From positions 29,102 to 93,101 of the forward strand of contig JBCCYL010000017.1 in assembly GCA_039189765.1 (NCBI GenBank): a stretch of DNA of 64,000 nucleotides. The letters run 5' to 3'. Made by a program: the position numbers and the translations under genes. The notes below the pieces were generated by a model. It was not told the DNA's origin, did no database searches, and was given only the letters and a program-made list of their open reading frames with translations. This document shows, piece after piece, positions 11,391 through 57,008 of this stretch; the first letter of the stretch is position 1, and the number at the start of each line of letters is the position of its first letter. The stretch is from Cyanobacteria bacterium P01_F01_bin.150 (GTDB lineage Bacteria > Cyanobacteriota > Cyanobacteriia > CAKZMO01).

Positions 11391-11900
11391 ATGAAACAAG
11401 CTGTGTCACGACAGAATTGGATGGCAACGTTTGCCAAAGCCCCACTGGCTCACCTAGAGCAACATGTTGATTCTGTTCTGGAATCAGCATTGTTCTCCGG
11501 TCAAAAGAGGCCAAAGTATCAATTTTTGCGATCGCCCGAAATTGGTCTGGCAATGATCCGAGGTCGAGCAGGCGGCACGGGTCAGCCGTTTAACCTCGGA
11601 GAAATGACCATTACTCGCTGTGTGGTTCAACTAAAGGCAGAAGGCAAAGGGCAGAAGGCAGAATCTAAAATCCCAAATCCTATCTCTGGGTTTGGGTATG
11701 TGGCGGGGCGATCGCATCGTCACGCTGAACTTGTGGCTCTCTGTGATGCGTTGATGCAGCATCCCGACTGGTGCGATCGGGTGCAGGCTGGGGTCATTGA
11801 GCCGTTGGTGGTGCTCGCTCAAGAAAAACGAGCGGCGGAAGCGGCGGAAGTGGAATCCACCCGCGTTAATTTCTTCACTATGCTGCGAGGAGAAAGTTGA
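11391..11900 (+). CDS. phnG: C-P lyase subunit PhnG
   Basis: PEIGLAMIRGRAGGTGQPFNLGEMTITRC, TRVNFFTMLRGE. Confidence 0.95.
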   Translation: MKQAVSRQNWMATFAKAPLAHLEQHVDSVLESALFSGQKRPKYQFLRSPEIGLAMIRGRAGGTGQPFNLGEMTITRCVVQLKAEGKGQKAESKIPNPISGFGYVAGRSHRHAELVALCDALMQHPDWCDRVQAGVIEPLVVLAQEKRAAEAAEVESTRVNFFTMLRGES

Positions 11901-27337: not shown

Positions 27338-28519
27338 AGCACCTAGACAAAATTAATTTTATATTCTTCTCCGATGCCATTGAGAACGCGTTCAACATAT
27401 TCTACCAGCGAACTCCAAGATTTATATGCATCAATCTCAATCCAATAATATTTCATGAACTTCCATAACTTCTCAATCAAGTTTAGATGGGGTGAATAGG
27501 TCGGCAAGTAAAATATATGGATACCTCTCTCTGCCCATTCCTGGCTCTTAAAGTAAATTGAGTTGCTTGTATGAATAGACGCATTATCTGCAACGATAAA
27601 AACAGGCTCAGAATGATCTAAAAATAAGGTATCAATGCAATTAATCACAACATCACTATTGATTGTTTGTTCAGATACATATACTTCAAAGTCTAGATTC
27701 TTACGTAAAAAACCAAGAACATTCAGACGTTTTCCCATACAACTTAAAAGATGAACGTATTGACCAATGGGTTGCCAGCCATAAGGGATACAAGGAATTA
27801 GCCCAAAGCCACTTTCATCCATATAATATAGAGATATTTCACCTGCCGCATCTCGTCGCTCTAGCTCCTCTAGCTCTAGCTTTTTCTCTTGATACTCAGT
27901 CTCTAATGGACGACCTGCAGGAGTCCGCCGAAAACGATGCCAGCTCATCCCTAGTCGCTTTATGAGGCGCTTTAGAGTTCTCTTAGATATGGTAATATCC
28001 CATGCTTCTTTGATTTGAGCTAATACTTTATTAAGCTGAATTGGGCTAGCTTGCACCCAGGCATAAATTTGCTCTTCCTGCTCAGATGTAAAGGTTGGGT
28101 TTCGACCTCGACCAGGTTTATCATAAAGGCCTAAAATACCACACTGTTCCCAGCCATTAATCCAATTATAAAGAGTCGGTTTAGTCACAGAAAAGATTGT
28201 GCTTAACTTCGGTATTTTATAGCCTTGCTGAAGAAGAATAAAGAATTGTGCTCGTTGCCTAACCTGATGTTTTTTACTGCTGCGATAGATTCGATTAAGG
28301 AGTCTTAGAGTCTCAGGTGAGATTTCACGGATTAGGATCATCGTATAGCTCAAGTGACAATGCTAACTTTAAGAATAAAACACTTTAATCTCTTTTCGAT
28401 AGATTTCCCTCCTTTGGGCACGTAGCACATATAGTGCGTGTAGCATATGTAGTGCAGAAAGAATTTTAATCTGTCAGATATATACATTTTGGTAGTTTAA
28501 TTATTTATGTCCACCTGCT
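27338..28519 (-). mobile_element. IS630-family insertion sequence
   Basis: TA on both flanks (27336-37, 28520-21); imperfect TIR AGCACCTAGACA / AGCAGGTGGACA. Confidence 0.9.
27343..28353 (-). CDS. IS630 transposase, apparently intact
   Basis: HTH N-terminus; DESGF, DNASIH, PTYSPHLNLIEKLW DDE motifs. Confidence 0.93.
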   Translation of the reverse strand: MSYTMILIREISPETLRLLNRIYRSSKKHQVRQRAQFFILLQQGYKIPKLSTIFSVTKPTLYNWINGWEQCGILGLYDKPGRGRNPTFTSEQEEQIYAWVQASPIQLNKVLAQIKEAWDITISKRTLKRLIKRLGMSWHRFRRTPAGRPLETEYQEKKLELEELERRDAAGEISLYYMDESGFGLIPCIPYGWQPIGQYVHLLSCMGKRLNVLGFLRKNLDFEVYVSEQTINSDVVINCIDTLFLDHSEPVFIVADNASIHTSNSIYFKSQEWAERGIHIFYLPTYSPHLNLIEKLWKFMKYYWIEIDAYKSWSSLVEYVERVLNGIGEEYKINFV

Positions 28520-28651
28520 TATGCGATCGCGTTGATGGAGGGCGATCGCCCCGACGATGTTTCTGGAGTCGAGTTTGTCGCGATCGCTTACACTGGGATG
28601 GTGAAACGACCTGAGAACACCGTCAATTTGAGTTACACCAGGGAGGCGCGT

Positions 28652-29266
28652 ATGGTTCATGCACCTGTCAGTCAAGCGATGACGTTTGAGGCATTTCTGG
28701 AATGGTATCCAGACGATGGTCGTCGCTACGAACTTATTGAAGGATGTGTAATTGAAATGTTACCAACAGGTCCCCATGAGGATGTCGGAGGATTTTTGGC
28801 GGCGGAACTCAATTTTGCCATTCGGACGCATCAGTTGCCGTACTCAATTCCGCGTACTTGCTTGATTAAACCCCAGGCAGAAGGGGCAGGGTATTTTCCC
28901 AATGTGGCAGTTTTAGATCGAGAGCGATTATCAGATGAACCTCTATGGGCGACTGCCTCTGTGATTCAGAAGGGTTCAACGATTCCCCTTGTGATTGAGG
29001 TTGTCAGTACGAACTGGCGAGACGATTACGGTCACAAGTTTGTCGAGTATGAAGCGATGGGCATTGTCGAGTATTGGATGGTAGATTTTCGCGCATTGGG
29101 AGCAGTCCGCCATATTGGCAAACCCAAACAGCCAACGATTACAGTGTGCCAGATTAAAGATGGCGAATATCAAATGCGTCGCTTTGTGGCTGGGGAGAGG
29201 ATTATCTCTGGAGTCTTTTCCCAGTTGAATCTAACAACAGATGCCGTGTTTGCTGCGGCAGGGTAG
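28652..29266 (+). CDS. Uma2 family endonuclease-fold protein
   Basis: RYELIEG, LVIEVVSTNWRDDY, EYWMVD; the usual PD motif reads PN. Confidence 0.88.
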   Translation: MVHAPVSQAMTFEAFLEWYPDDGRRYELIEGCVIEMLPTGPHEDVGGFLAAELNFAIRTHQLPYSIPRTCLIKPQAEGAGYFPNVAVLDRERLSDEPLWATASVIQKGSTIPLVIEVVSTNWRDDYGHKFVEYEAMGIVEYWMVDFRALGAVRHIGKPKQPTITVCQIKDGEYQMRRFVAGERIISGVFSQLNLTTDAVFAAAG

Positions 29267-29660: not shown

Positions 29661-29773
29661 AGAAGGGCGATCGCTTTGATTGGGGCGATCGATTCCCTCT
29701 CAAAATTGGTCTGAAGCATAGCGATTAGCCCAGTCTATCTATCCAAAAGCACTAATTTCATATTGCTGAAACT

Positions 29774-29877
29774 GCCTAACGGTGAAGTTGATGGCCAGAA
29801 CCTTGCAATAAAGACTCTGACATGCTACTTTTAGTCATCATTAAATTTACTTTGAGTAACTCCAATCGGTGCTAAAA
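29774..29877 (-). other. degenerate attC-like site
   Basis: Minus-strand ...TCAACT TCACC GTTAGGC R'-type end; matching R''/L'' half degraded. Confidence 0.4.
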
Positions 29878-30804
29878 CATCCTTCACAGCTAGCTTTTGA
29901 ATATTCAACCTTTGAGTATGGTTCTTCATTAGGAATACATGCAGATTGTTTTGAATGGCTAGGTAAAGTGCCTGAGAATAGCATCCATGCTGTAGTGACC
30001 GATCCCCCATATGGAGTTAAGGAGTACGATTTTGATCAGCTAGAGAAAAAAAATAACGGCAGAGGCGGAATTTGGAGAATACCACCATCATTTGATGGAA
30101 ATGTGCGTTCTCCTTTGCCGCGTTTTACAGCTCTTAACGAAAAGGAAAGAGCTCATTTACAACGCTTTTTCCTGGAATGGACGAAAATGATTATTCGGCC
30201 TATTTGTCCTGGTGGTCATATATTTATTGCTTCTAACACCTTTCTTTCGCAACTTGTATTTCAATCTTTAATAGATGGTGGACTAGAATATAGAGGGACA
30301 GCGATTCGGTTAGTCAGAACCTTGCGTGGTGGGGATAGGCCCAAAAATGCAGAAGAAGAGTTTGAGGATGTGTGCTCTATGCCTCGCGGCTGTTTTGAAC
30401 CCTGGGGTATTTTTCGTAAACCCTTCCTGAAAGGAATGAGAGTTAGTGACTGCCTTAAAGAATTTGGAACTGGAGGGCTAAGAAGAAAGTCTGATGGTAA
30501 TCCTTTCGAAGATGTTATCAATAGTGAACGAACCCCTCGAAAGGAAAGATTAATTGCAGATCATCCCAGCTTAAAACCACAATCTTTTCTGAGAAAAATT
30601 GTTTATGCCTCTTTACCTTTAGGCAATGGTATTGTTGTAGACCCTTTCATGGGTTCGGGTTCTACGATTGCTGCGGCTGCGGCTATTGGCTATCAAGGAA
30701 TTGGAATCGAGAGATATAAAGATTACTTTGATGTAAGTAAAGGAGCAGTTCCTAAACTTGCAGCCTTGCAGACTAAAGATTTACAACTTTCTTTGTTAGT
30801 TTGA
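29869..30804 (+). CDS. N4/N6 DNA methyltransferase (beta class)
   Basis: TDPPY near N-terminus; HPSLKP and DPFMGSGS near C-terminus. Confidence 0.93.
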   Translation: MLKHPSQLAFEYSTFEYGSSLGIHADCFEWLGKVPENSIHAVVTDPPYGVKEYDFDQLEKKNNGRGGIWRIPPSFDGNVRSPLPRFTALNEKERAHLQRFFLEWTKMIIRPICPGGHIFIASNTFLSQLVFQSLIDGGLEYRGTAIRLVRTLRGGDRPKNAEEEFEDVCSMPRGCFEPWGIFRKPFLKGMRVSDCLKEFGTGGLRRKSDGNPFEDVINSERTPRKERLIADHPSLKPQSFLRKIVYASLPLGNGIVVDPFMGSGSTIAAAAAIGYQGIGIERYKDYFDVSKGAVPKLAALQTKDLQLSLLV

Positions 30805-31446
30805 GAAATCTTGATATACCCAGTTCTCTTTCATCTTGCTAGAGCCTTTCTTGTTAACACTTGCTGTTATGGTCCGCCTGCTAGTTGAAGAACGGCCAGA
30901 AAAATTCCAATCTCCTTCCTCTAACTTAGCCGCATATACTGCTTTGAAAATAAAGGACTTAGGATTTATGCCTTTAACTTTGTCATTTGATGTGTTGCTA
31001 TCAAAGCAGAAAACCATAAGCCAAACAGCCTCAGGATTATGGCCTTGCCAACCACTCAAATGCCTAGAAGCTTTTATCTCAAGACCCTGATCAGAATACT
31101 GAACAGCATTGTTAGGAAAGGTATTTACAGGAATTAAATCTGGATGCCCATTGTGATACTGATTCTTGGCAAGTGTAGGACAATGTTTGGGAATATTCAT
31201 ATTCATAAATTCACCTACAATACTACTGAAATTGGCAGGCATCAAAAAGCTCTCTAGACGAGACATCCTCTTTGTTTGAAGCTGGCCGTTAATAAAACCG
31301 ATGAAGTCTATAAACTCACCCATAGCTTGATAAATATGAGACACTTCTAAACCATATGGCAACTCGCATTTATCATTAAATAAACTAAAGTTGACTGATA
31401 TTGGCAAACATGCCTGAAGCTCTTTCTCAGCATCATTATTGATCAT
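30796..31446 (-). CDS. putative type II restriction endonuclease
   Basis: HPDL...LEIKAS PD-(D/E)xK; coupled to C gene, convergent with MTase; ATG 31446. Confidence 0.78.
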   Translation of the reverse strand: MINNDAEKELQACLPISVNFSLFNDKCELPYGLEVSHIYQAMGEFIDFIGFINGQLQTKRMSRLESFLMPANFSSIVGEFMNMNIPKHCPTLAKNQYHNGHPDLIPVNTFPNNAVQYSDQGLEIKASRHLSGWQGHNPEAVWLMVFCFDSNTSNDKVKGINPKSFIFKAVYAAKLEEGDWNFSGRSSTSRRTITASVNKKGSSKMKENWVYQDFSN

Positions 31447-31669
31447 TGATATGATTTGGCTTTGATTCCAACAACTGTGAAGGTTCAACGCCAAGCACTG
31501 CCGCAATTTTCTCTATATTGAGTGCAGAGATGTTTCTCTCGCCCCTTTCAACAGAACCAACGTAAGTTCTGTGCAAATCAGCTAAGTCAGCCAATTGCTC
31601 CTGACTTAGTTCAAGTTTTTTCCGATAAAACTTGATATTTGACCCAATAATGGCAAGTATGCTCGACAT
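31436..31669 (-). CDS. R-M controller (C) protein, XRE HTH
   Basis: SQEQLADLADLHRTYVGSVERGERNIS; upstream C-box. Confidence 0.88.
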   Translation of the reverse strand: MSSILAIIGSNIKFYRKKLELSQEQLADLADLHRTYVGSVERGERNISALNIEKIAAVLGVEPSQLLESKPNHINDQ

Positions 31670-31687
31670 GGGTCTAATTTCGCAAAT

Positions 31688-31722
31688 ATGCTACTTATAA
31701 GTCTACAGCTTATAAGTAGCAT
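31688..31722 (-). promoter_or_regulatory. double C-box operator
   Basis: ATGCTACTTATAAGCTGTAGACTTATAAGTAGCAT, 35-bp near-palindrome 18 bp upstream of C start. Confidence 0.85.
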
Positions 31723-31820
31723 TTATTTCTACAGAGTTGTTCTTGCTCTTAAAGCTTGCATCTGTAAATCAATTCTTTGGAAATTGTTGTCAGTTTAGTC
31801 GGCTACCTAATTAGTCGGGC

Positions 31821-32125
31821 ACCTAACAATTTATTAGAGGGAAAATTTCTGCCTAATCCACTTGTCAAGCAGATTAGTTAGCAGCTTATCTGTAATCCAC
31901 CTATAAGGTAGGTTAGTTAGAAACTTGTCCGCCTAATATCCCTATGCGGTTAGTTTAGGCAGAAATCATTCAGCTCAACACGCTGATATGGGGGATTAGA
32001 TAGAAATTCATCCGCCTAATCTGCTTATATGGATGATTAGGCAGAAAAGCTCAGTCTAATCTCCTCTTCAATAGGACATGGGAACTGCTTAATGTTTATT
32101 CGTCAGATTTAATACAAGGTTACTT
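31821..32125 (-). other. integron-like platform copy 1 (attI-like site plus ~41-bp repeat ladder, no integrase)
   Basis: Homologous to 39359-39584; homology starts at GTTAGG core (31821-27). Confidence 0.7.
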
Positions 32126-32306
32126 TGCATAAGGCGAAGATTCTTGGTTCAGGGACGATGTAAGATGCGATCGCCCTCCACCAAAGCGATCGCCCTTCAC
32201 TAACGCATCCTTTTGCAAAGTTGGAGCGGGTTCGAAACATAACAAACTTGGTCCGCCCGTTGATGATGAAATTCTTAAAACGCGCTCATCCCTCGTTATC
32301 ACTCGT

Positions 32307-32675
32307 TCACAGTAATGAACGAATAAGAACTAAACCATCCACAACGGTGTCTAGCTGTAGTCGATATCCTTTAAGCAACCTCATGCCTAATAGTGGATCA
32401 GTTTCGGCTGCATTCACTTCAATCTGCTGATATTGTCCATCCCAAATGACTTGGGCATCATAGACATCAAAGAGGGTTTCACTACCATCTCCTAACGTAC
32501 CGCGATCGCGATATTTCCACGATAATCCAAGCTCAGCAATCATACTACTCGGTAAACTTAGGAACCCGGTAAATCCTGTATCAATCACAGCATTAACTGA
32601 CTTCAGGTTCGCGCCATTTTTGAGGGTAACTGAAATCACTGCTTCGTAGTTTTTGTTAACGTACCCCTGCATCAT
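32307..32675 (-). CDS. clan AA aspartic protease-like protein
   Basis: AVIDTGFTG, PLLGMRLL. Confidence 0.85.
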   Translation of the reverse strand: MMQGYVNKNYEAVISVTLKNGANLKSVNAVIDTGFTGFLSLPSSMIAELGLSWKYRDRGTLGDGSETLFDVYDAQVIWDGQYQQIEVNAAETDPLLGMRLLKGYRLQLDTVVDGLVLIRSLL

Positions 32676-32947
32676 TGGGAATCTTTTAGACTCCGTGCCC
32701 CAAAGCGATGAACGGCACGATAGCCTATGCGAATAACCCACGGTTGAGCATCGGGCAAACGCTGGTAGAGCTTTGCCGTAGCCATCATAGTATCGTCACC
32801 CATTTCAAATGCGCCTGTCTCAATATCAATCGCTACAATTTTGCCGTGATTATCTGCTTCAATTTGCGGGCGAATTTGGGCTTCGTACCAGCGATCGCCC
32901 TTCTGGGCAAATTCTTCTTTACTGTAGCGAGGTTGTCGAACGGCCAT
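32672..32947 (-). CDS. hypothetical protein coupled to the aspartic protease gene
   Basis: GKIVAIDIETG..RIG; stop overlaps downstream start. Confidence 0.75.
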   Translation of the reverse strand: MAVRQPRYSKEEFAQKGDRWYEAQIRPQIEADNHGKIVAIDIETGAFEMGDDTMMATAKLYQRLPDAQPWVIRIGYRAVHRFGARSLKDSQ

Positions 32948-33052
32948 GGTTTTGGAGTGACCTAAGGGTTTCTCCATTATTTTAGCGTGGTCACACTACA
33001 ATTTTGTGCGATCGCCCTCCACCAAAGCGATCATAAAGTCCCTTAACCCCTC

Positions 33053-33346
33053 TCATAACGTATCGGGCCAACGATGGGAACCATGAAGTACAGCTAAAAC
33101 CTCAATGCTATTTTGCCGAATACGATAGGGGAGTATAAACGGAGTACGGGGAACGACCAATTCACGAGTTTGATTCACTCGGCCTATGCGCCCCATCTCA
33201 GGAAACTGTTGCAGCGATTGTAAGGATTTGTCAATGCGTTCAATGATTTGCTGGGCCGTGTCTGGAGCCGTTTCAGCGATGTAGTCATAGGCATGATTTA
33301 AATCAGCGATCGCTTGCTTGGTCCACTTCATCTTTATTGTCGCCAT
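33053..33346 (-). CDS. RelE/ParE family toxin
   Basis: WTKQAIADL, FPEMGR, TRELV, YRI..VLAVLH. Confidence 0.88.
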   Translation of the reverse strand: MATIKMKWTKQAIADLNHAYDYIAETAPDTAQQIIERIDKSLQSLQQFPEMGRIGRVNQTRELVVPRTPFILPYRIRQNSIEVLAVLHGSHRWPDTL

Positions 33347-33576
33347 CGGTCAAATGCAGCCTTTACTTCATCATCCGTCGCAAATTCATCGGCATCCGCT
33401 TGCTGAACCCCGTCAAGGATATGAGCGACTTGCCACCGATGGAGTTCTAAATACAGATCAATGGCTTCGTTGAGGACATAAGTGCGATCTCGATCGATCC
33501 CTTCGGCGATTTCATCCAGGGCTGTACGTTTTTCTGAGGTAAGGCGAAAGGTCACGGTGTCTTTGCTGACGGTCAC
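33334..33576 (-). CDS. CopG/RHH antitoxin
   Basis: TVTFRL...LDEIA..DRDRTYVLNEAI; overlaps toxin. Confidence 0.85.
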   Translation of the reverse strand: MTVSKDTVTFRLTSEKRTALDEIAEGIDRDRTYVLNEAIDLYLELHRWQVAHILDGVQQADADEFATDDEVKAAFDRWRQ

Positions 33577-33743
33577 GGTGAATTAACCTACTGTGTGATG
33601 AAATAATATGCTGTATTACAGTGTAAGACTAGCACATCCGAACATTGATAATCCCAAGAAAGCTGTCTGATGTCATAAATCGAGAAAAGCGATGTGACTA
33701 CTGTGACGTCTATATAATAGGGATTGTCGCTCGAAAAAAATTG

Positions 33744-34070
33744 ATGGTTACTCCCTCTACACCCACATCAACGTCAATTGAAATAGGCTTTAAGGCGCTT
33801 TCCGATCCGCTGCGGGTGAGAATCGTTGAAGCGCTGCAAGAACAAGAAATGTGTGTATGTGATTTGAGCGATCGCCTCGACATCCGTCAATCCAAGCTGT
33901 CCTTTCATCTCAAGGTACTCAAAGAAGCCCAACTATTGCGCTCTACCCAAGCCGGGAAATGGACCTACTACAGCCTCAACCTTCCCCAGTTCGCCACCCT
34001 AGAGCAGTATCTGGCCGATATCCGACGGTTAAGTCCAATGTTGCCCCCACGGGTATGTGCAGATGATTGA
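33744..34070 (+). CDS. arsR: ArsR/SmtB regulator
   Basis: FKALSDPLR, EMCVCDL, SKLSFHLKVL. Confidence 0.9.
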   Translation: MVTPSTPTSTSIEIGFKALSDPLRVRIVEALQEQEMCVCDLSDRLDIRQSKLSFHLKVLKEAQLLRSTQAGKWTYYSLNLPQFATLEQYLADIRRLSPMLPPRVCADD

Positions 34071-34137
34071 TGATTGACCAAAGTTGATATGACGGTTCGA
34101 AAATTTTGCACCCATCAGGTCTGATCTTCACCCATGA

Positions 34138-34247
34138 CCACCCGCAAGTAAACTGCGGGCTAGCAAGAAAAGTCCCTACGGAACTCCCACTCTTCCGGAA
34201 ATCCTGAAGGGATTTGCTGAAATAGCCCGCCATTTATTCGCGGGTGA
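34138..34247. repeat. REP-like inverted hairpin pair
   Basis: CACCCGCAAGTAAACTGCGGGCTA ... TAGCCCGCCATTTATTCGCGGGTG. Confidence 0.5.
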
Positions 34248-34291
34248 AATTTGGTATGACCTTATTGTTCGTTCTATTCTTAAAACGATTG

Positions 34292-34317
34292 ATCAAATCA
34301 ACTTTTTTTGATTTGAT
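34292..34317. promoter_or_regulatory. ArsR operator
   Basis: ATCAAATCAA-CTTTTT-TTGATTTGAT containing ATCAA-N6-TTGAT upstream of gap-arsJ. Confidence 0.75.
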
Positions 34318-34367
34318 AAGAGTGGTTTTCGCAGTGTGACGTGAAACAACCACAGGAATGAACGGAT

Positions 34368-35381
34368 ATGGTGAAGGTTGCAATCAATGGGTTTGGTAGA
34401 ATCGGACGCCTGGTCTTACGGGCCTCTTGGCTTTGGCCAGAGCTAGAGTTCACCCACATCAACGAAATTAAAGGGGGATCGGTCGCCGCCGCTCATCTGC
34501 TCAAATTTGATTCGGTCCACGGTCGCTGGCAACCAGAGGTGGAAGCCGTAGGCGAAGACAAAATTACCATTGATGGCGTGCCTGTCACCTTTAGCGACTA
34601 TGCCACTCCTGGGGATGTGCCGTGGGATGAGCTAGGCGTGGATATGGTGCTGGAATGTTCGGGCAAATTTCGCACCCCTGAACTGCTAGAGCCATACTTC
34701 AAGCGCAGGGTGAAAAAAGTGATCGTGGCCGCGCCCGTAAAACAGGGGGCATTGAATATCGTCTATGGCATTAACGATCACCTCTACAACCCAGATGAGC
34801 ATCACCTCCTCACTGCCGCATCGTGTACGACGAATTGTATTGCCCCTGTGGTGAAAGTCATTTATGAAGGCTTGGGAATTAAGCATGGGGTGATCACGAC
34901 CATTCACGACATCACCAATACCCAAACCATCGTGGATGCTCCCCATAAAGATTTACGACGGGCCAGGGCTAATAGTTTATCGCTGGTCCCCACCACCACC
35001 GGATCTGCCACAGCCATTGGCATGATTTACCCTGAACTCAATGGCAAACTTAATGGGCTAGCGGTTCGGGTGCCGTTGCTCAATGCGTCCCTGACGGATT
35101 GTGTGTTTGAGGTGGAGCAGTCCACCAGCGCTGAAGCGGTGAACGACCTATTTAAATCTGCATCAGAAGGAGACCTCAAGGGCATTTTAGGCTACGAGAC
35201 CCGCCCCTTGGTGTCCATTGACTACAAAGACGATCCGCGTTCCTCAATCATTGATGCCCTCTCCACCATGGTGGTGGACGGCACTCAAGTGAAAGTGCTG
35301 GCCTGGTACGACAACGAGTGGGGCTATTCCAACCGCATGGCTGAACTCACTCGAAAAGTTGCCCATTCGCTCTCCCAATAA
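34368..35381 (+). CDS. gap: ArsJ-associated glyceraldehyde-3-phosphate dehydrogenase
   Basis: [25 protein letters not shown]; adjacent to arsJ. Confidence 0.95.
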
Positions 35382-35394
35382 ATAATTAAAGTCC

Positions 35395-36651
35395 ATGACA
35401 TCTTCAATCACATTTGATCAGGCAGGGGTTCGCAATTACGCCCTTGTAACAGCTGCCTACTGGGGGTTTACGGTTACGGACGGAGCACTACGGATGCTGG
35501 TGCTTCTCTATTTTCACACCCTGGGCTACACGCCCCTAGAAGTGGCCATGCTGTTTCTGTTCTATGAAATTTTTGGCATTGTCACCAATTTATTTGGGGG
35601 ATGGATTGGATCTCGATTTGGGGTAAAGCTGACCCTTTACGGTGGCATTGCCCTGCAAATTTTGGCGTTAGTGATGCTGACTCCGGTGAATGAATCGTGG
35701 GCGATCGCCCTTGCTGTCCCCTACGTCATGGTCGCTCAAGCCATTGCGGGGATGGCCAAAGACTTCACCAAGATGAGTTCAAAAAGTGCGATTCGACTGG
35801 TGATTCCTCAAAATGCCCAATCATCCCTATTCAAATGGGTGGCGATCCTGACGGGGTCGAAGAATGCCCTGAAAGGGGTGGGCTTTTTCCTCGGCAGTGT
35901 CCTACTGGCCTCCTTTGGGTATGTGGCGGCCTTACTGGTGATGGCCGGTGGATTATGTTTGGTGCTGCTCTCTGGTTACCTTCTACCGAATGGCATGGGC
36001 AAGGTCAAAGCCAAGGTTCCCTTCCGCCAAATTTTTTCAAAGAGTCGAGAAATCAATATTCTTTCTGCGGCCCGTTTTTTCCTCTTCGGTGCACGGGATG
36101 TTTGGTTTGTGGTGGGCTTACCCGTGTTCCTATACAGTCAGCTAAACTGGTCGTTTGAGCAGGTGGGCGGATTTCTAGCAATTTGGGTAATTGGATACGG
36201 GATTGTGCAATCTCTGGCTCCAACCCTGCTCCGGCGGTTTGGCTCTGGACAACCACCCAAAGCAGGAACCATTCGCTTCTGGACCGGATTTTTGATTGCG
36301 ATGCCAGCGGCGATCGCCCTTGCCCTACAAACCGGACGTCCCCCCGGCCAAACGATTGTGATTGGCTTGATGGCCTTTGGCATTGTCTTTGCGTTCAATT
36401 CAGCGGTTCATTCCTACCTAGTATTGGCCTATACCGAGGACGACAAGGTCGCCTTAAATGTGGGGTTTTACTATATGGCCAATTCAGGCGGACGTTTGGC
36501 GGGAACTGTGCTGTCTGGTCTCATCTTCCAGCTCTATGGATTAGTTGGATGTTTGTGGGTGTCCACAGTTTTTGTCTTGTTGGCTGAACTGGTTACGCTC
36601 AAACTGCCAAATCCCAAACAAGGGAGCGTTGCCCAAGCCCACCGATCGTGA
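35395..36651 (+). CDS. arsJ: organoarsenical efflux MFS transporter ArsJ
   Basis: YWGFTVTDGALRMLV, KMSSKSA, LTGSKNALKG, VGFYYMAN. Confidence 0.93.
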   Translation: MTSSITFDQAGVRNYALVTAAYWGFTVTDGALRMLVLLYFHTLGYTPLEVAMLFLFYEIFGIVTNLFGGWIGSRFGVKLTLYGGIALQILALVMLTPVNESWAIALAVPYVMVAQAIAGMAKDFTKMSSKSAIRLVIPQNAQSSLFKWVAILTGSKNALKGVGFFLGSVLLASFGYVAALLVMAGGLCLVLLSGYLLPNGMGKVKAKVPFRQIFSKSREINILSAARFFLFGARDVWFVVGLPVFLYSQLNWSFEQVGGFLAIWVIGYGIVQSLAPTLLRRFGSGQPPKAGTIRFWTGFLIAMPAAIALALQTGRPPGQTIVIGLMAFGIVFAFNSAVHSYLVLAYTEDDKVALNVGFYYMANSGGRLAGTVLSGLIFQLYGLVGCLWVSTVFVLLAELVTLKLPNPKQGSVAQAHRS

Positions 36652-36679
36652 ACAAACCCAGGGGTAGTATGCTGGGTAG

Positions 36680-37158
36680 ATGTCTTATCAACCGCCTTTT
36701 GATATTACGTCTAAAATTATCAACTGTGGCAGACTCTGATTTTGGGTCAGTGGAATCCCCTTTTTCTGCTCTTGCCGATCGAAAGTGTGATTAAGGAGGA
36801 ACAAGAGCGTTATTACCACACTCTGGAATTAGCGGATCGGGCTGCAAATAGTACGGTCTTTATCGAGTTTATGTTGGAGATTATCGGTGACGCCCTGACT
36901 GAGGCAACGTCTGCTACGAATCAAGCTAGCGACCAAGCTAGCGACCAAGTTAGCGACCAAGTTCAAAAGCTGCTGGCTGTTATGGGCAATGGCTTCTCCA
37001 CAGCCCAGAGCCTGATGGAACAGTTAGAGTTATCTCATCGACCGACGTTTCGTAAGAACTATTTGGTTCCAGCTTTAGAGGCAGGGCTCATAGAAATGAA
37101 ATATCCAGATAAGCCTCGTAGTCCGAAGCAGCAGTATCGCAGGCAATTGATTTACTAA
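36680..37158 (+). pseudogene. Fic-family gene with internal deletion
   Basis: MSYQPPFDIT N-terminus joins out of frame to LWQTLIL; no HPFxxGNGR; C-terminal HTH PRSPKQQY; 12-bp QASD repeats. Confidence 0.75.
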
Positions 37159-37179
37159 CGAAGGGTTAGCCAACTGTTG

Positions 37180-37569
37180 TTACTTTAGCCAACGAAACCC
37201 TTTCTCTCCTTTTAGCTTGCGATCAAAGCTGGCAGTTTCTGTACAACCGATCTGTTTTGATATTGCCCCGATCAGGTAGTCAGAGAAGTCTGCTTTACCC
37301 TGTTTGTATCGCTGTAGGGCTTGATCTGCCGTTGAACGGTTTTCAAAGGCAAATGCAGCACTGTGAAGCATAGCCTCTAGAACACTGATAATTTCGACCT
37401 TCTGAAAACGGTAGTTATTTCCTCTGAGCACCCAAACCAGCTCACAGAGAACGATATTGCTAATAAAGCAGGGTTGGTTTTGTTGAATCAGTTGATCAGC
37501 TTGCTGCCATTGCTGTTCATCGTCCCGAGTAAGGTAGCGCACCAGGATATTGGTATCAAGTCCAATCAT
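37180..37569 (-). CDS. VapC PIN toxin
   Basis: MIGLDTNILVR, VLCELVWVL, DFSD, SFD. Confidence 0.9.
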   Translation of the reverse strand: MIGLDTNILVRYLTRDDEQQWQQADQLIQQNQPCFISNIVLCELVWVLRGNNYRFQKVEIISVLEAMLHSAAFAFENRSTADQALQRYKQGKADFSDYLIGAISKQIGCTETASFDRKLKGEKGFRWLK

Positions 37570-37801
37570 TGGCTCCCTCGGATATAGCCGCGTCCATATC
37601 TTTGAGCGTCGTTGGTTGAGTACTGGGTCGATGAAGGATACCGGATAGGGTTTCGACTGCGACGTTAAGAGGGAAAAGTTTGACCTGACCGTCTTCGTCA
37701 ATGACAAATTCAACTCGACTACCGCTAGCTAGCCTAAGATGTTCTCGAATTTCTTCAGGCAAGGTAATTTGTCCGGTGTCGGTTACAGTTGTACTCAGCA
37801 T
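37556..37801 (-). CDS. AbrB/MazE-type antitoxin
   Basis: GQITLPEEIREHL...G.RVEF. Confidence 0.88.
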   Translation of the reverse strand: MLSTTVTDTGQITLPEEIREHLRLASGSRVEFVIDEDGQVKLFPLNVAVETLSGILHRPSTQPTTLKDMDAAISEGANDWT

Positions 37802-38040
37802 GGCGAGAAAGACGATAGTGCTAACACTATAATTTTAACCAAATTAATTAGGCCATCCTACTAAAACATTCTACAATTTGGTGCCCATCAGGCTGGGACT
37901 TATGTGAAGGCATTGGCAATGCCTTCACAATATTCAGTAAGGGCGATCGCGTTATTGGAGGCGATACGGGCAAAGCTCAGGCAAGCCTTTCTTGAATGCC
38001 CAAAGGGGGTGTTTAATCCGTTTATGGAGGGTATTGAATT

Positions 38041-38388
38041 ATGGATCGATTAGAGCAATATCGCACAACCTTGGAGAAGGTTTTACATCAACATGCTCAA
38101 CTTTCTCAGCAGGTTCGGGCAGATCATCCCAATGATCCAGACAGTCCGGCTGAGGCGATCGCTGTTTGTGATCCGAAAACGGACAACTATTTGTTGATTA
38201 CAGCAGGATGGACACCCAGTCACCGCATCCATAGTATCCTGGCTCATTTCCGCATCATCGATGAGCATATTTACATTGAGTGGAGTGGGATTGAAGAGCT
38301 GATTGAGGAGCTAGTTGAGCAGGGCATTCCACAATCTGTGTTTCGTCCTGCACAACCGCAATTGCCCACTTCTCAAACAACGGCTTGA
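38041..38388 (+). CDS. XisI family protein
   Basis: MDRLEQY, DNYLLITAGW, ELVEQGIP. Confidence 0.8.
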   Translation: MDRLEQYRTTLEKVLHQHAQLSQQVRADHPNDPDSPAEAIAVCDPKTDNYLLITAGWTPSHRIHSILAHFRIIDEHIYIEWSGIEELIEELVEQGIPQSVFRPAQPQLPTSQTTA

Positions 38389-38695
38389 ATCGTCCCGATG
38401 TTTTATCGCTAGATGTTCATCCTTCAGGCAATTGCTTCGGTCTCCATGCCCCAAAATGATAAACGGCGCGGCTGGTTTTCCTTACGTCTTTCTTGAATGC
38501 CCCTTGGACTATACCCAGCCTACGGCGATCGCACTCCTTTTTTTAGCAGAGCGATTGCATCCTCTCACCCCAAGGCGATCGCATTCTCTCCGAAACACCG
38601 ATAACGTTCACATAAGACACTCAGATTAGGGAAAATATTGATCGTTGAGTTTTCTGCTGTCAACCCAAATTACCGAGGGCGAGCGCACTGAAGCA

Positions 38696-38783
38696 ACATA
38701 ACGGTCGCGCTCACCGGACGCAAACAACTTTCGTAACTCAGCCGAGCATATCACCATGTTCCGGTGCAGCGCAGTTGTTAGGC
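38696..38783 (-). other. integron attC site
   Basis: Minus strand GCCTAAC-N5-CGCTGCAC-CGG...CCG-GTGAGCG-N5-GTTATGT; extrahelical G in L''; GNAT stop lies in R''. Confidence 0.88.
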
Positions 38784-39341
38784 GTTACGGTCATTGTCAG
38801 AGTTGAGTGCTAAGGTCATCAGATGCTCATCGTAGAACTTTCCATCTCTGGAAAAGGTCTCTAGTTCAGTACCATATATACGGAAACCGAACGACTGATA
38901 AAGGCGAGTTGCCGCTTTTTGTTCGGTTACAACATTTAGATTGACCCTTCTGATGCCTGGGGCATTCGCTGCCCAACTCAACGCTTCGCTGATGAGCGCT
39001 CTACCGTAGCCGTGACAACGAAACGGGGGCAAGACATAGAGACCTGCAAGATATCCACGATGCTTCTCGTTGGGTGCTGAATAGCGACAAAGCCGAACGA
39101 TACCAATGAGTTGTCCACTTTGAAACGCGCCGAAAAAGCAGCGGTCATCGCTCTGTGCAAGCCTCACAGCAGTTTCGGAGAGGTGTGGCTCGTCTTCGGG
39201 GAGCGAGCCGAAAGCGGGCGGCTGTTCACGGAGCGCAGATAGGCGAACAGAACGATATGCCTCTGCATCGGCAGAGGTGAGAGCACGTACACTAACTGAC
39301 TTGATATCTTGCAGAGACTTCATGCTTTGGTTATTGTTCAC
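38778..39341 (-). CDS. GNAT acetyltransferase, integron gene cassette
   Basis: GLYVLPPFRCHGYG, LYQSFGF; bounded by GTTAGGC (39359-65) and attC. Confidence 0.88.
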   Translation of the reverse strand: MNNNQSMKSLQDIKSVSVRALTSADAEAYRSVRLSALREQPPAFGSLPEDEPHLSETAVRLAQSDDRCFFGAFQSGQLIGIVRLCRYSAPNEKHRGYLAGLYVLPPFRCHGYGRALISEALSWAANAPGIRRVNLNVVTEQKAATRLYQSFGFRIYGTELETFSRDGKFYDEHLMTLALNSDNDRNA

Positions 39342-39358
39342 GCGGGTAGTGTAGCAAC

Positions 39359-39584
39359 GCCTAACAATTTATGAGAGGGAAACTTTCTGCCTAATCCACT
39401 TGTGAAGCAGATTAAGTAGAAGCTTGTCCGCCTAATCCACCCATGTGGCAGATTAGTTAGAAACTTGTCCTCCTAACATCCTTATTTGGGTGATTAGGCA
39501 GAAACATTCAGTATAATCCCCTCTTCAATAGGACATGGGAACTGTTTAATATTTATTTGCCAGAGTTAATACAAAGTTACTCTT
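39359..39584 (-). other. integron platform copy 2 (attI-like site plus ~41-bp repeat ladder)
   Basis: Between first cassette and divergent intI fragment. Confidence 0.75.
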
Positions 39585-39704
39585 ATGCAGTCACCCCAGT
39601 CCCGTCCGAAGAAGTTGCTTGATCAGGTTCGAGATGTCATTCGCACCAAGCACTATTCATCTCGAACAGAACAAACCTACATGCAGGTTACTCATGGATA
39701 TTGA
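39585..39704 (+). pseudogene. intI: truncated integron integrase (N-terminal fragment)
   Basis: MQSPQSRPKKLLDQVRDVIRTKHYSSRTEQTY then stop after 39 codons. Confidence 0.85.
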
Positions 39705-39754: not shown

Positions 39755-39952
39755 TTACGCAGTATAGCTTTTGTGGCTAATCGCATCCTCATCAATTCCT
39801 GCGGCTAGCAAATCCTGAGTAATGCCCCGTTCCATCCCGTCATACTCAATCTGAACTTTGTCATCTTGCAGCGTTACGTAAATAATATTGCCTCGCACTC
39901 GTCAGCCCCGATCCCACCCAACTTGCATCAAAGCATAGTGACCATCATGGCC
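39755..39952 (-). pseudogene. XisI remnant
   Basis: HYALMQVGWDRG*RVRGNIIYV...IEYDGMERGITQDLLAAGI; 5' truncated, internal stop. Confidence 0.7.
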
Positions 39953-40228
39953 TTATGCAGCGATCGCTCTTACCTTCAACTCAAGAGCGACGAAGAGTTT
40001 GGCGATATCTCCACAGCTTGGTCCCCCAGCTTGAGTAAAGGCTTCACGAGACAAACCTGTTTCTTGAGCAATGGCCTCAAAGCACTTGGCACGAGCAATG
40101 GTACGGAAGGCTTCGGCAATAAACTCAGGATCTTCGGCGTCCTCTTCAAAACAGGCTTCTAGGTAATAGGCAATATCTTCCTTTGTCTCCAAGTAATGTG
40201 CAGAGTCATATGGTCGAGTGTTGTTCAT
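39953..40228 (-). CDS. addiction module antidote (HI1420-like)
   Basis: YDSAHYL..EDIAYYL, IARAK...IAQETGLSRE. Confidence 0.82.
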   Translation of the reverse strand: MNNTRPYDSAHYLETKEDIAYYLEACFEEDAEDPEFIAEAFRTIARAKCFEAIAQETGLSREAFTQAGGPSCGDIAKLFVALELKVRAIAA

Positions 40229-56922: not shown

Positions 56923-57008
56923 AAGGATTTGTTCTATTTGATCCTGCATTGCTGACAACCCTTCTAAGGATTTGTTCTATTTGATCCTGCATTGCTGACA
57001 ACCCTTCT
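56923..57008. repeat. perfect 43-bp tandem duplication
   Basis: AAGGATTTGTTCTATTTGATCCTGCATTGCTGACAACCCTTCT x2. Confidence 0.95.

Follow-up and report, generated by a model that had tools for sequence, protein, structure and literature searches.

Two relic integron platforms in a cyanobacterial contig

We analyzed a 64,000-nucleotide stretch of DNA (here called the window; positions 29,102 to 93,101 of contig JBCCYL010000017.1, GenBank assembly GCA_039189765.1) from the genome of Cyanobacteria bacterium P01_F01_bin.150. Two segments of this window, copy 1 (31822-32125) and copy 2 (39360-39584), are organized like the attI platform of an integron. Judged from their sequences, both are relic platforms, each made up of a crossover core, a ladder of repeats with a period of about 41 bp, and a conserved leader block, with the integron integrase gene (intI) either lost or cut down to 33 codons (Table 1). 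The two copies are homologous (0.87 identity across 221 aligned columns). Their alignment starts exactly at CCTAAC (31822 and 39360, respectively) and ends just short of the place where intI should start (32125 and 39584, respectively), and the left flanks beyond the crossover are unrelated to each other. The copies differ by an indel of 82 bp, whose extra bases are found in copy 1 and are absent from copy 2; the indel corresponds to two repeat units.

A simple attI site is defined, in the accessible text of PMC12614218, as two inverted boxes (L and R) that lie 4 to 5 bp apart. Both cores in the window have inverted L and R boxes at this spacing with the crossover in GTT. When each copy is read on the minus strand (i.e., toward the cassettes), it presents an L box, a 5-bp spacer, and a terminal G/TTAGG, where the slash marks the crossover. 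On the opposite side, the last CCTAAT arm of copy 2 is replaced by a -10-like TATAAT (39512-39517). The last ladder unit is thus replaced by the -10-like sequence TTCAGTATAAT, and the block of 70 nucleotides (nt) after it is the best-conserved part of the platform. The leader block with TTCAGTATAAT was present in seven platform rows (C17b, C261a, C261b, C14a, C14b, C145, and L023, of which the last comes from another genome), and it may serve as a promoter. The promoter scan also returned three terminator-like matches in copy 1.

The leader of copy 1 is truncated 7 bases ahead of the place of the intI ATG, and no intI codons remain. In copy 2, the stub of intI matched the domain Phage_int_SAM_4 with an E value of 1.6e-4, which is below the curated cutoff, and a tblastn comparison aligned it with residues 2 to 30 of intact IntI at 79% identity. 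Directly adjoining the cut end of copy 1, positions 32120-32225 form a strong hairpin (DNA fold z-score, -3.3). The outer arm of this hairpin is the inverted CTTATGCA, a word that extends across the intI ATG of copy 2 and occurs again at 39950-39958. The hairpin may be an inversion or recombination scar.

Public assemblies of sequencing runs provided a check on the assembly. Positions 31000-33221 are covered, with no difference at all, by a Logan contig of run X1, although X1 is possibly the source sample and thus not independent DNA. Copy 1 and both its borders are therefore not an artifact of this assembly. Copy 2 was covered by short overlapping unitigs only. A second run (X2) contained only parts of the interval, at 95 to 99% likeness, and has no bearing on the platforms.

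Table 1. Positions and characteristics of the platform parts, neighboring genes, and related elements. Coordinates refer to the window unless a contig is named.
Feature	Position	Strand	Remarks
Copy 1, attI-like crossover core	31822-31839	none	Homology with copy 2 begins here
Copy 1, core boxes	R, 31822-31827; L, 31833-31839		R, CCTAAC (minus strand, GTTAGG); spacer, AATTT; L, ATTAGAG
Copy 1, ladder	31840-32062	none	Five units of 39 to 42 bp and a half unit
Copy 1, starts of CCTAAT-type arms	31852, 31891, 31932, 31974, 32015, 32055		ATTAG-type arms alternate with them about 20 bp away
Copy 1, conserved leader (putative promoter) block	32052-32125	+	Homologous to 39509-39584; 89% identical over 73 bases
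Copy 2, attI-like core	39360-39377	none	CCTAAC, AATTT, ATGAGAG
Copy 2, ladder	39378-39520	none	Three units and a half unit; counterparts of units 3 and 4 of copy 1 absent
Copy 2, leader (putative promoter) block	39509-39584	+
Copy 2, truncated intI	39585-39704	+	ATG, 39 codons, and stop; only the first 33 or so codons IntI-like
Copy 2, first cassette-like gene	38778-39341	-	GNAT acetyltransferase; transcribed away from the core
attC-like imperfect palindrome (GCCTAAC ... GTTATGT) behind the GNAT gene	38694-38785	-	Seen by eye; weak (fold z-score, -1.0)
Type-A platform pieces in the genome	C17, C261, and C154 (two each); C14 and C148 (three each); C145, C47, C54, C70, and C118		Pieces per contig
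Type-B platform	C74:34405-35100	-	Core and five 42-bp units with GATAAC/GTTATC arms
Restriction-modification module	29869-31669	mixed	First unit beside copy 1
Controller helix-turn-helix (HTH) gene of the module	31436-31669	-
Putative nuclease open reading frame (ORF) of the module	30796-31506	-	Nuclease role suggested by position alone
N6/N4 methylase of the module	29869-30804	+
HIP1-pair element	32166-32191, 33007-33032; inverted, 28523-28549, 29663-29689, 37939-37965		Two copies identical over 26 nt

Geometry of the ladder

The ladder lies between the core and the intI ATG. Within it, CCTAAT-type and ATTAG-type arms follow each other in alternating orientation at a step of 20 to 21 bp, with the L box of the core as the first arm. 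The period thus amounts to about four helical turns, and the arms are similar to the core boxes (with degenerate boxes at 31892, 31975, and 39513). Arms that face each other are separated by about 15 to 17 bp, versus about 5 to 7 bp in the core, and arms that stand back to back almost touch. Because the arms alternate, the center of a dyad can be placed on either spacer.

Several searches of the window support the repeat. With Tandem Repeats Finder (TRF) at its default stringency, a 41-bp period was detected at 39379-39476, and lenient settings recovered both copies. The dyad CCTAAT-N15-ATTAGG, with up to two mismatches, occurred six times in the 64 kb (2.6 expected), and five of the six matches were inside the platforms; as many as six were reached in 4 of 100 shuffles. 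The arm-linker-arm pattern had four matches, all located in the platforms, versus 0.23 expected, a count not reached in any of 100 shuffles.

Since each unit carries an RYYYAAC-like box and a GTTRRRY-like box in the order seen in attC sites, the units could conceivably act as folded single-stranded or cruciform DNA, i.e., as attC-like hairpins that catch IntI or pause replication, or else as hairpins in the leader RNA of the cassettes or of intI. Binding of folded hairpins by integron integrases is documented in the accessible part of PMC12614218. The dyad of a unit measures 27 nt and has a single pair of boxes, rather than the full-length palindrome with R''-L''...L'-R' boxes that characterizes attC, and it is about half as long as the shortest attC sites. 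The lower length limit of attC palindromes is about 57 nt. In the rows inspected by eye, the paired arms consistently differed in their flanks without compensation, and Rfam returned no match at the gathering score across the whole window. We consider a role of the units as hairpins very improbable.

The preliminary description of this DNA, which was prepared from the sequence alone, had presented the two segments as direct repeats about 7.5 kb apart whose homology stops at a GTTAGG core, and the alignment bears out both statements. It had placed the unit starts at 31853, 31892, 31933, 31975, 32016, and 32056 in copy 1 and at 39391, 39432, 39473, and 39513 in copy 2, all of which are correct. 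Its comparison of the half-sites with the integrase box and its estimate of the period as about four helical turns were likewise confirmed. The attI anatomy that it proposed agrees with the R and L boxes 5 bp apart, the break of homology at G/TT, the outward-directed cassette-like gene, and the start of intI in copy 2.

Platform relics elsewhere in the same genome

The source assembly is cyanobacterial and comprises 10.6 Mb in 350 contigs, with the window located on contig C17. No integron integrase scored above the TIGR02249 cutoff (265) anywhere in this genome; the best match reached 109 bits, and all matches were fragments. Without an intact integrase, the platforms cannot work here now. 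The machinery is dead in this genome, leaving ladders that, as fossils, drift and shed units in register.

These fossils are numerous. BLAST searches revealed at least 15 pieces of platforms with CCTAAT arms (type A) on 10 contigs, and one platform with a second kind of arm (type B) was identified on contig C74, where the intI fragment covers residues 2 to 100 and contains two stops (Table 1). Every ladder piece in the genome was attached to a core, a leader block, or an intI stub, so the ladder is not a genome-wide repeat. At all six cores in the genome, the left flanks differ from the crossover base (CTAA/C) onward, exactly as expected of unrelated cassettes that joined the platform at this point. 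The ladder units are orthologous by position among the copies; the older state had five units, two of which have been lost from copy 2.

Platforms that share a contig (C17, C261, C14, C148, and C154) are always co-oriented and 3.8 to 7.5 kb apart. Even so, a platform is not most closely related to its neighbor on the contig: C17b is closer to C261a (0.90) than to C17a (0.87), and C261a is closer to C14a (0.925) than to C261b (0.846), which shows that the twins are not the result of a recent local duplication. Co-oriented relics that differ in their first cassettes and in how far intI has decayed would fit a serial capture of whole integrons at attI followed by the loss of redundant integrases. 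Old duplications with subsequent dispersal would fit them equally well. The co-oriented, nonsister platforms may be the trace of whole integrons stacked at attI.

Ladders beside intact integrase genes in other genomes

Within the family, 5 of 17 genomes carry intact intI genes, and among the 401 genomes sampled from the class, 125 do. Platforms homologous to the window copies precede intact intI at two loci, L023 and L065. At L023, which belongs to the same genus, a type-A ladder with the same arms stands before an intact-looking intI, and at L030, from another genus, the 41-bp ladder is built of other arms.

Of the intI loci of the class (125 genomes), 30 were read. We extracted 33 upstream regions, 28 of which were at least 150 nt long. 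Autocorrelation yielded a top lag of 40 to 42 or 80 to 84 in 17 of these 28 regions, compared with about 3 by chance (the criterion covers 8 of the 75 lags tested), and TRF at lenient settings reported a period of 38 to 44 in 16 of 28 cyanobacterial upstream regions. The arrays in register comprised 3 to about 7 units, the arm sequence being particular to each locus. In each array that was printed out, the L box of the core with its flank resembled the arm of a unit with its linker. The distance from the array to the start of intI was 7 to 35 bp at four type-B loci and 62 to 147 bp at others; at the former, the promoter must sit inside the array.

Many contigs with an intact intI (L021, L022, L023, L038, L046, L049, L050, L053, and others) end inside the ladder or just upstream of it, the start of intI being 24 to 600 bases from the end of the contig. 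The platforms are probably present in multiple copies in those genomes as well, breaking their assemblies.

A wider scan with the IntI profile, limited to one genome per species, provided 80 loci, from which 8 without the N terminus of the integrase were dropped. Among the 72 loci kept, an array with a period of 38 to 44 bp was the best TRF repeat in 8 of 15 cyanobacterial, 2 of 8 Chloroflexota, and 3 of 14 Acidobacteriota loci. None was detected at the 11 proteobacterial loci or at the remaining 24 loci, 2 of which gave the autocorrelation signal. Printouts of the Acidobacteriota and Chloroflexota loci displayed the same layout, i.e., a core followed by the array. The ladder architecture also exists outside Cyanobacteria. 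When 98 intact IntI proteins were arranged on a quick tree, the presence of the ladder was clustered and required 17 changes, versus a mean of 27.9 for shuffled labels; none of 500 shuffles required as few. One clade of IntI, with 26 mostly proteobacterial and Chlorobiota rows, had no ladder.

Two findings that would have spoken against the preliminary description, namely, an absence of the ladder beside other cyanobacterial intI genes and an occurrence throughout the genome independent of integrons, were looked for. The ladder was found beside such genes, and in the source genome it occurred only together with other platform parts. The number of units varies as had been proposed (3.5 to 5.5 in the window and about 3 to 7 elsewhere). 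The further suggestion of a distinct, undescribed attI system stands in part: the phased array is real and widespread, but it belongs, as a variant, to the known attI sites with accessory repeats and does not amount to a new system.

Proposed function of the ladder

We favor, with confidence a little better than even, the view that the ladder is an expanded and phased set of accessory IntI-binding sites, related to the DR1 and DR2 sites of attI1 and likely to control the intI promoter as well. The arms lie two helical turns apart, which would place all sites on one face of the DNA. Protomers of IntI would contact the ladder arms through the domains that they use on the core. Pairs of arms that face each other would be too widely spaced for cutting and would hold inactive protomers, which could build a filament-like complex and raise the local concentration of IntI. 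Such a complex might shape the attI x attC synapse, as has been proposed for DR1 and DR2 of attI1, and bring IntI to the crossover site. The last units overlap the intI promoter region or adjoin it, so that an occupied array could also act back on the transcription of intI as a throttle, perhaps together with that of the cassettes.

Several observations are consistent with IntI as the binding protein. First, the period of 40 to 42 bp is constant across integrase lineages, whereas the arm sequence shifts along with the core boxes of each locus. Second, we found no conserved gene in the 1.5 kb downstream of intI at the 33 loci; the 142 ORFs in these regions formed clusters of 2 loci at most (the cassette side was not screened), and IntI is therefore the only protein that always accompanies the ladder. 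The clustering of the ladder on the IntI tree and the precedent of DR1 and DR2 also count in favor of this reading. The IntI proteins are about 320 residues long and align with the integron-integrase model from its first position, which leaves no room for an extra arm-binding domain.

The same region could instead be read as a set of operators for some transcription factor distinct from IntI, supplied by the host or encoded elsewhere, that sets the transcription of intI and the cassettes, like the LexA and CRP sites of proteobacterial integrons. The array does occupy the divergent promoter region that separates the cassettes from intI, with its last unit overlapping the -10-like TATAAT, and the type-B arrays extend close to the intI start. 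Dimeric regulators, too, typically bind inverted half-sites set in a fixed phase. The LexA motifs of Cyanobacteria differ from the proteobacterial one (accessible text of PMC3108266), which makes control by another factor plausible. A conserved adjacent regulator gene, the mark of a linked-regulator operator, was nevertheless missing from the 1.5 kb downstream of intI when the 33 loci were compared. Moreover, the arms vary with the integrase lineage and track the core boxes, a pattern that a conserved host factor would not explain, and the coexistence of arm types A and B in one genome speaks against one host factor whose specificity is fixed. An operator for another factor is, in our judgment, unlikely.

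Conservation of the repeated positions bears on whether the ladder does anything at all. In five of seven orthologous pairs, the repeated positions of the array were 0.88 to 0.91 identical, versus 0.64 to 0.73 at the variable positions, with at most 10 of 1,000 circular shifts reaching the observed value in these pairs. A ladder without function might arise as a by-product when the L-box segment is duplicated in tandem, through slippage or aberrant attI recombination, and is tolerated in a freely variable spacer between attI and intI. The resemblance of the units to the L box and its flank, the change of their number in whole units, and the absence of the array from many integrons all agree with such an origin. 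The better conservation of the repeated positions does not, nor does the period, which is held at 40 to 42 bp even where the unit sequences share little, and the units are orthologous by position rather than freshly duplicated. We regard a functionless by-product as quite improbable.

Binding of IntI to an accessory array, as favored above, has several observations set against it. TRF found no array at 12 of the 28 intact cyanobacterial loci, and a whole subclade (L042, L043, L052, L057, L063, and L117) is devoid of it, which indicates that integrons function without a ladder. The ladder counts themselves are rough, since the automated call misses visible cases such as L030. In two of the seven orthologous pairs, the repeated positions were no more conserved than the variable ones. 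Covariation of the arms with IntI would be expected whatever protein binds, given that the ladder and intI are physically linked. The scan for sigma-70 promoters reported none on either strand of either copy. The symmetry of the units is also imperfect: the dyad of the TRF consensus was clearly above shuffles (0.005) in just 2 of 22 arrays, and a sequence-blind search for near-perfect dyads in chains (7 or more of 9 pairs) placed no locus, including the window copies, above shuffles or random pieces of genome. The latter search was judged too strict for imperfect arms and was used neither for nor against the proposal. The 41-bp period and the arm motif are well supported, and perfect dyad symmetry is not.

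A broader generalization of the IntI-binding array is more speculative, and we put it forward as a doubtful but conceivable extension. Chromosomal integrons of a large clade (Cyanobacteria, Chloroflexota, and some Acidobacteriota) would have as their attI, instead of a simple site, an intasome scaffold of 150 to 300 bp that presents 6 to 14 core-type IntI half-sites on one face. The scaffold would deliver the integrase to the crossover and, once full, turn off the integrase and cassette promoters, thereby replacing the control by LexA and host factors that operates in Proteobacteria. The co-oriented relics that occur every 4 to 8 kb would then be scars left by the capture of whole integrons through attI x attI cointegration.

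Relation to known recombination sites

The closest counterpart is attI1, which carries two extra IntI1 sites, DR1 and DR2, that favor attI x attC recombination and have been proposed to act as a topological filter (accessible text of PMC8946536). The attI1 site resembles the platforms described here in its inverted L/R simple site, its crossover in GTT, and its additional box copies toward intI, a position shared by the core-box copies of the window. The two sites of attI1 are in direct orientation, whereas the ladders have 6 to about 14 alternating arms (7 to 11 in the window copies). Compared by layout, the ladder further differs from attI1 in its fixed step of 20 to 21 bp (period, 40 to 42 bp) and its spread over 150 to 300 bp, by which it reaches the intI promoter. 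The attIA site of Vibrio cholerae also belongs to a sedentary chromosomal platform, in which the cassette and integrase promoters diverge within the interval between attI and intI (accessible text of PMC3948777), but it has no such repeats and needs host factors, as far as the accessible text of PMC8946536 describes it.

Truncated pieces of attI have been reported in the arrays of mobile integrons and, like the relics of the present genome, are parts of attI located away from a working intI (accessible text of PMC12901181). Those pieces are short attI1 remnants at cassette borders, whereas the relics found here are whole platforms, with ladder, leader, and intI stubs, that recur every 3.8 to 7.5 kb.

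Among recombination systems other than integrons, the res site of Tn3 and gamma-delta (sites I, II, and III) has accessory sites after the crossover site, composed of the same half-sites at other spacings. Such accessory sites are occupied by inactive subunits of the recombinase, and they both shape the synapse and repress the flanking promoters. The idea is similar to that proposed for the ladder, but res belongs to a serine recombinase, has three sites without a long phased array, and shows no homology with the ladder. In the attP site of phage lambda, many recombinase sites flanking the core build the intasome, and the lambda integrase binds the arm sites through a separate N-terminal domain, which IntI lacks. 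A literature search returned no description of a phased repeat array in attI within the accessible text of the sources covered, which did not include subscription journals.

The attI sites of only a few integron classes are known in detail, and the accessible text of the IntegronFinder paper likewise states that attI is unknown for most integrons (PMC4889954). The signature described here, i.e., a core followed by a phased array with a period of 40 to 42 bp whose arms copy the core boxes, is conserved and easy to recognize and would permit the annotation of attI across hundreds of environmental integrons and orphan arrays. The array is real and widespread and is present in the window only as fossils; its putative function is a proposal drawn from sequence comparisons. 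If IntI does bind the array, integron integrases would build higher-order complexes on double-stranded DNA, which would bear on how cassettes are captured efficiently and how the integrase is restrained in phyla that do without SOS control of the proteobacterial kind. Relics that share one orientation are numerous in this genome and suggest a route by which whole integrons accumulate and decay.

Genes beside the platforms and other features of the window

A strict scan of the window for attC sites returned none, and the weak attC-like palindrome behind the GNAT gene (Table 1) had no relatives within the genome. On the cassette side of copy 1, the first unit is a restriction-modification module. 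A palindromic pair of ACTTATAAGT-like boxes, together resembling a C box, lies upstream of its controller HTH gene (31688-31730). Just past the first cassette group of copy 1, there is a transposase gene of the IS630 family with DDE_3 and HTH domains (27343-28353). Between the two platforms, the plus strand encodes an ArsR-like regulator, a GAPDH-like protein, and a major facilitator superfamily transporter (33645-36651), a gene set that resembles an arsenate resistance operon of the arsR-gapdh-arsJ type rather than cassettes.

Small hairpins recur behind several minus-strand genes, each formed by an element of two HIP1 octamers (GCGATCGC) that are 9 to 11 bases apart. These GCGATCGC-N9-11-GCGATCGC hairpins were considered as candidate attC sites and ruled out, as they are HIP1 pairs. 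Elsewhere in the window, 43 bp are duplicated perfectly in tandem at 56923-57008 (2.0 copies; 100% match), and intergenic runs of heptamer (AAGGCAG and AATCCAA) and octamer (AACTCCCC and AACGCCCC) repeats were observed at 11634, 14032, 21469, and nearby positions.

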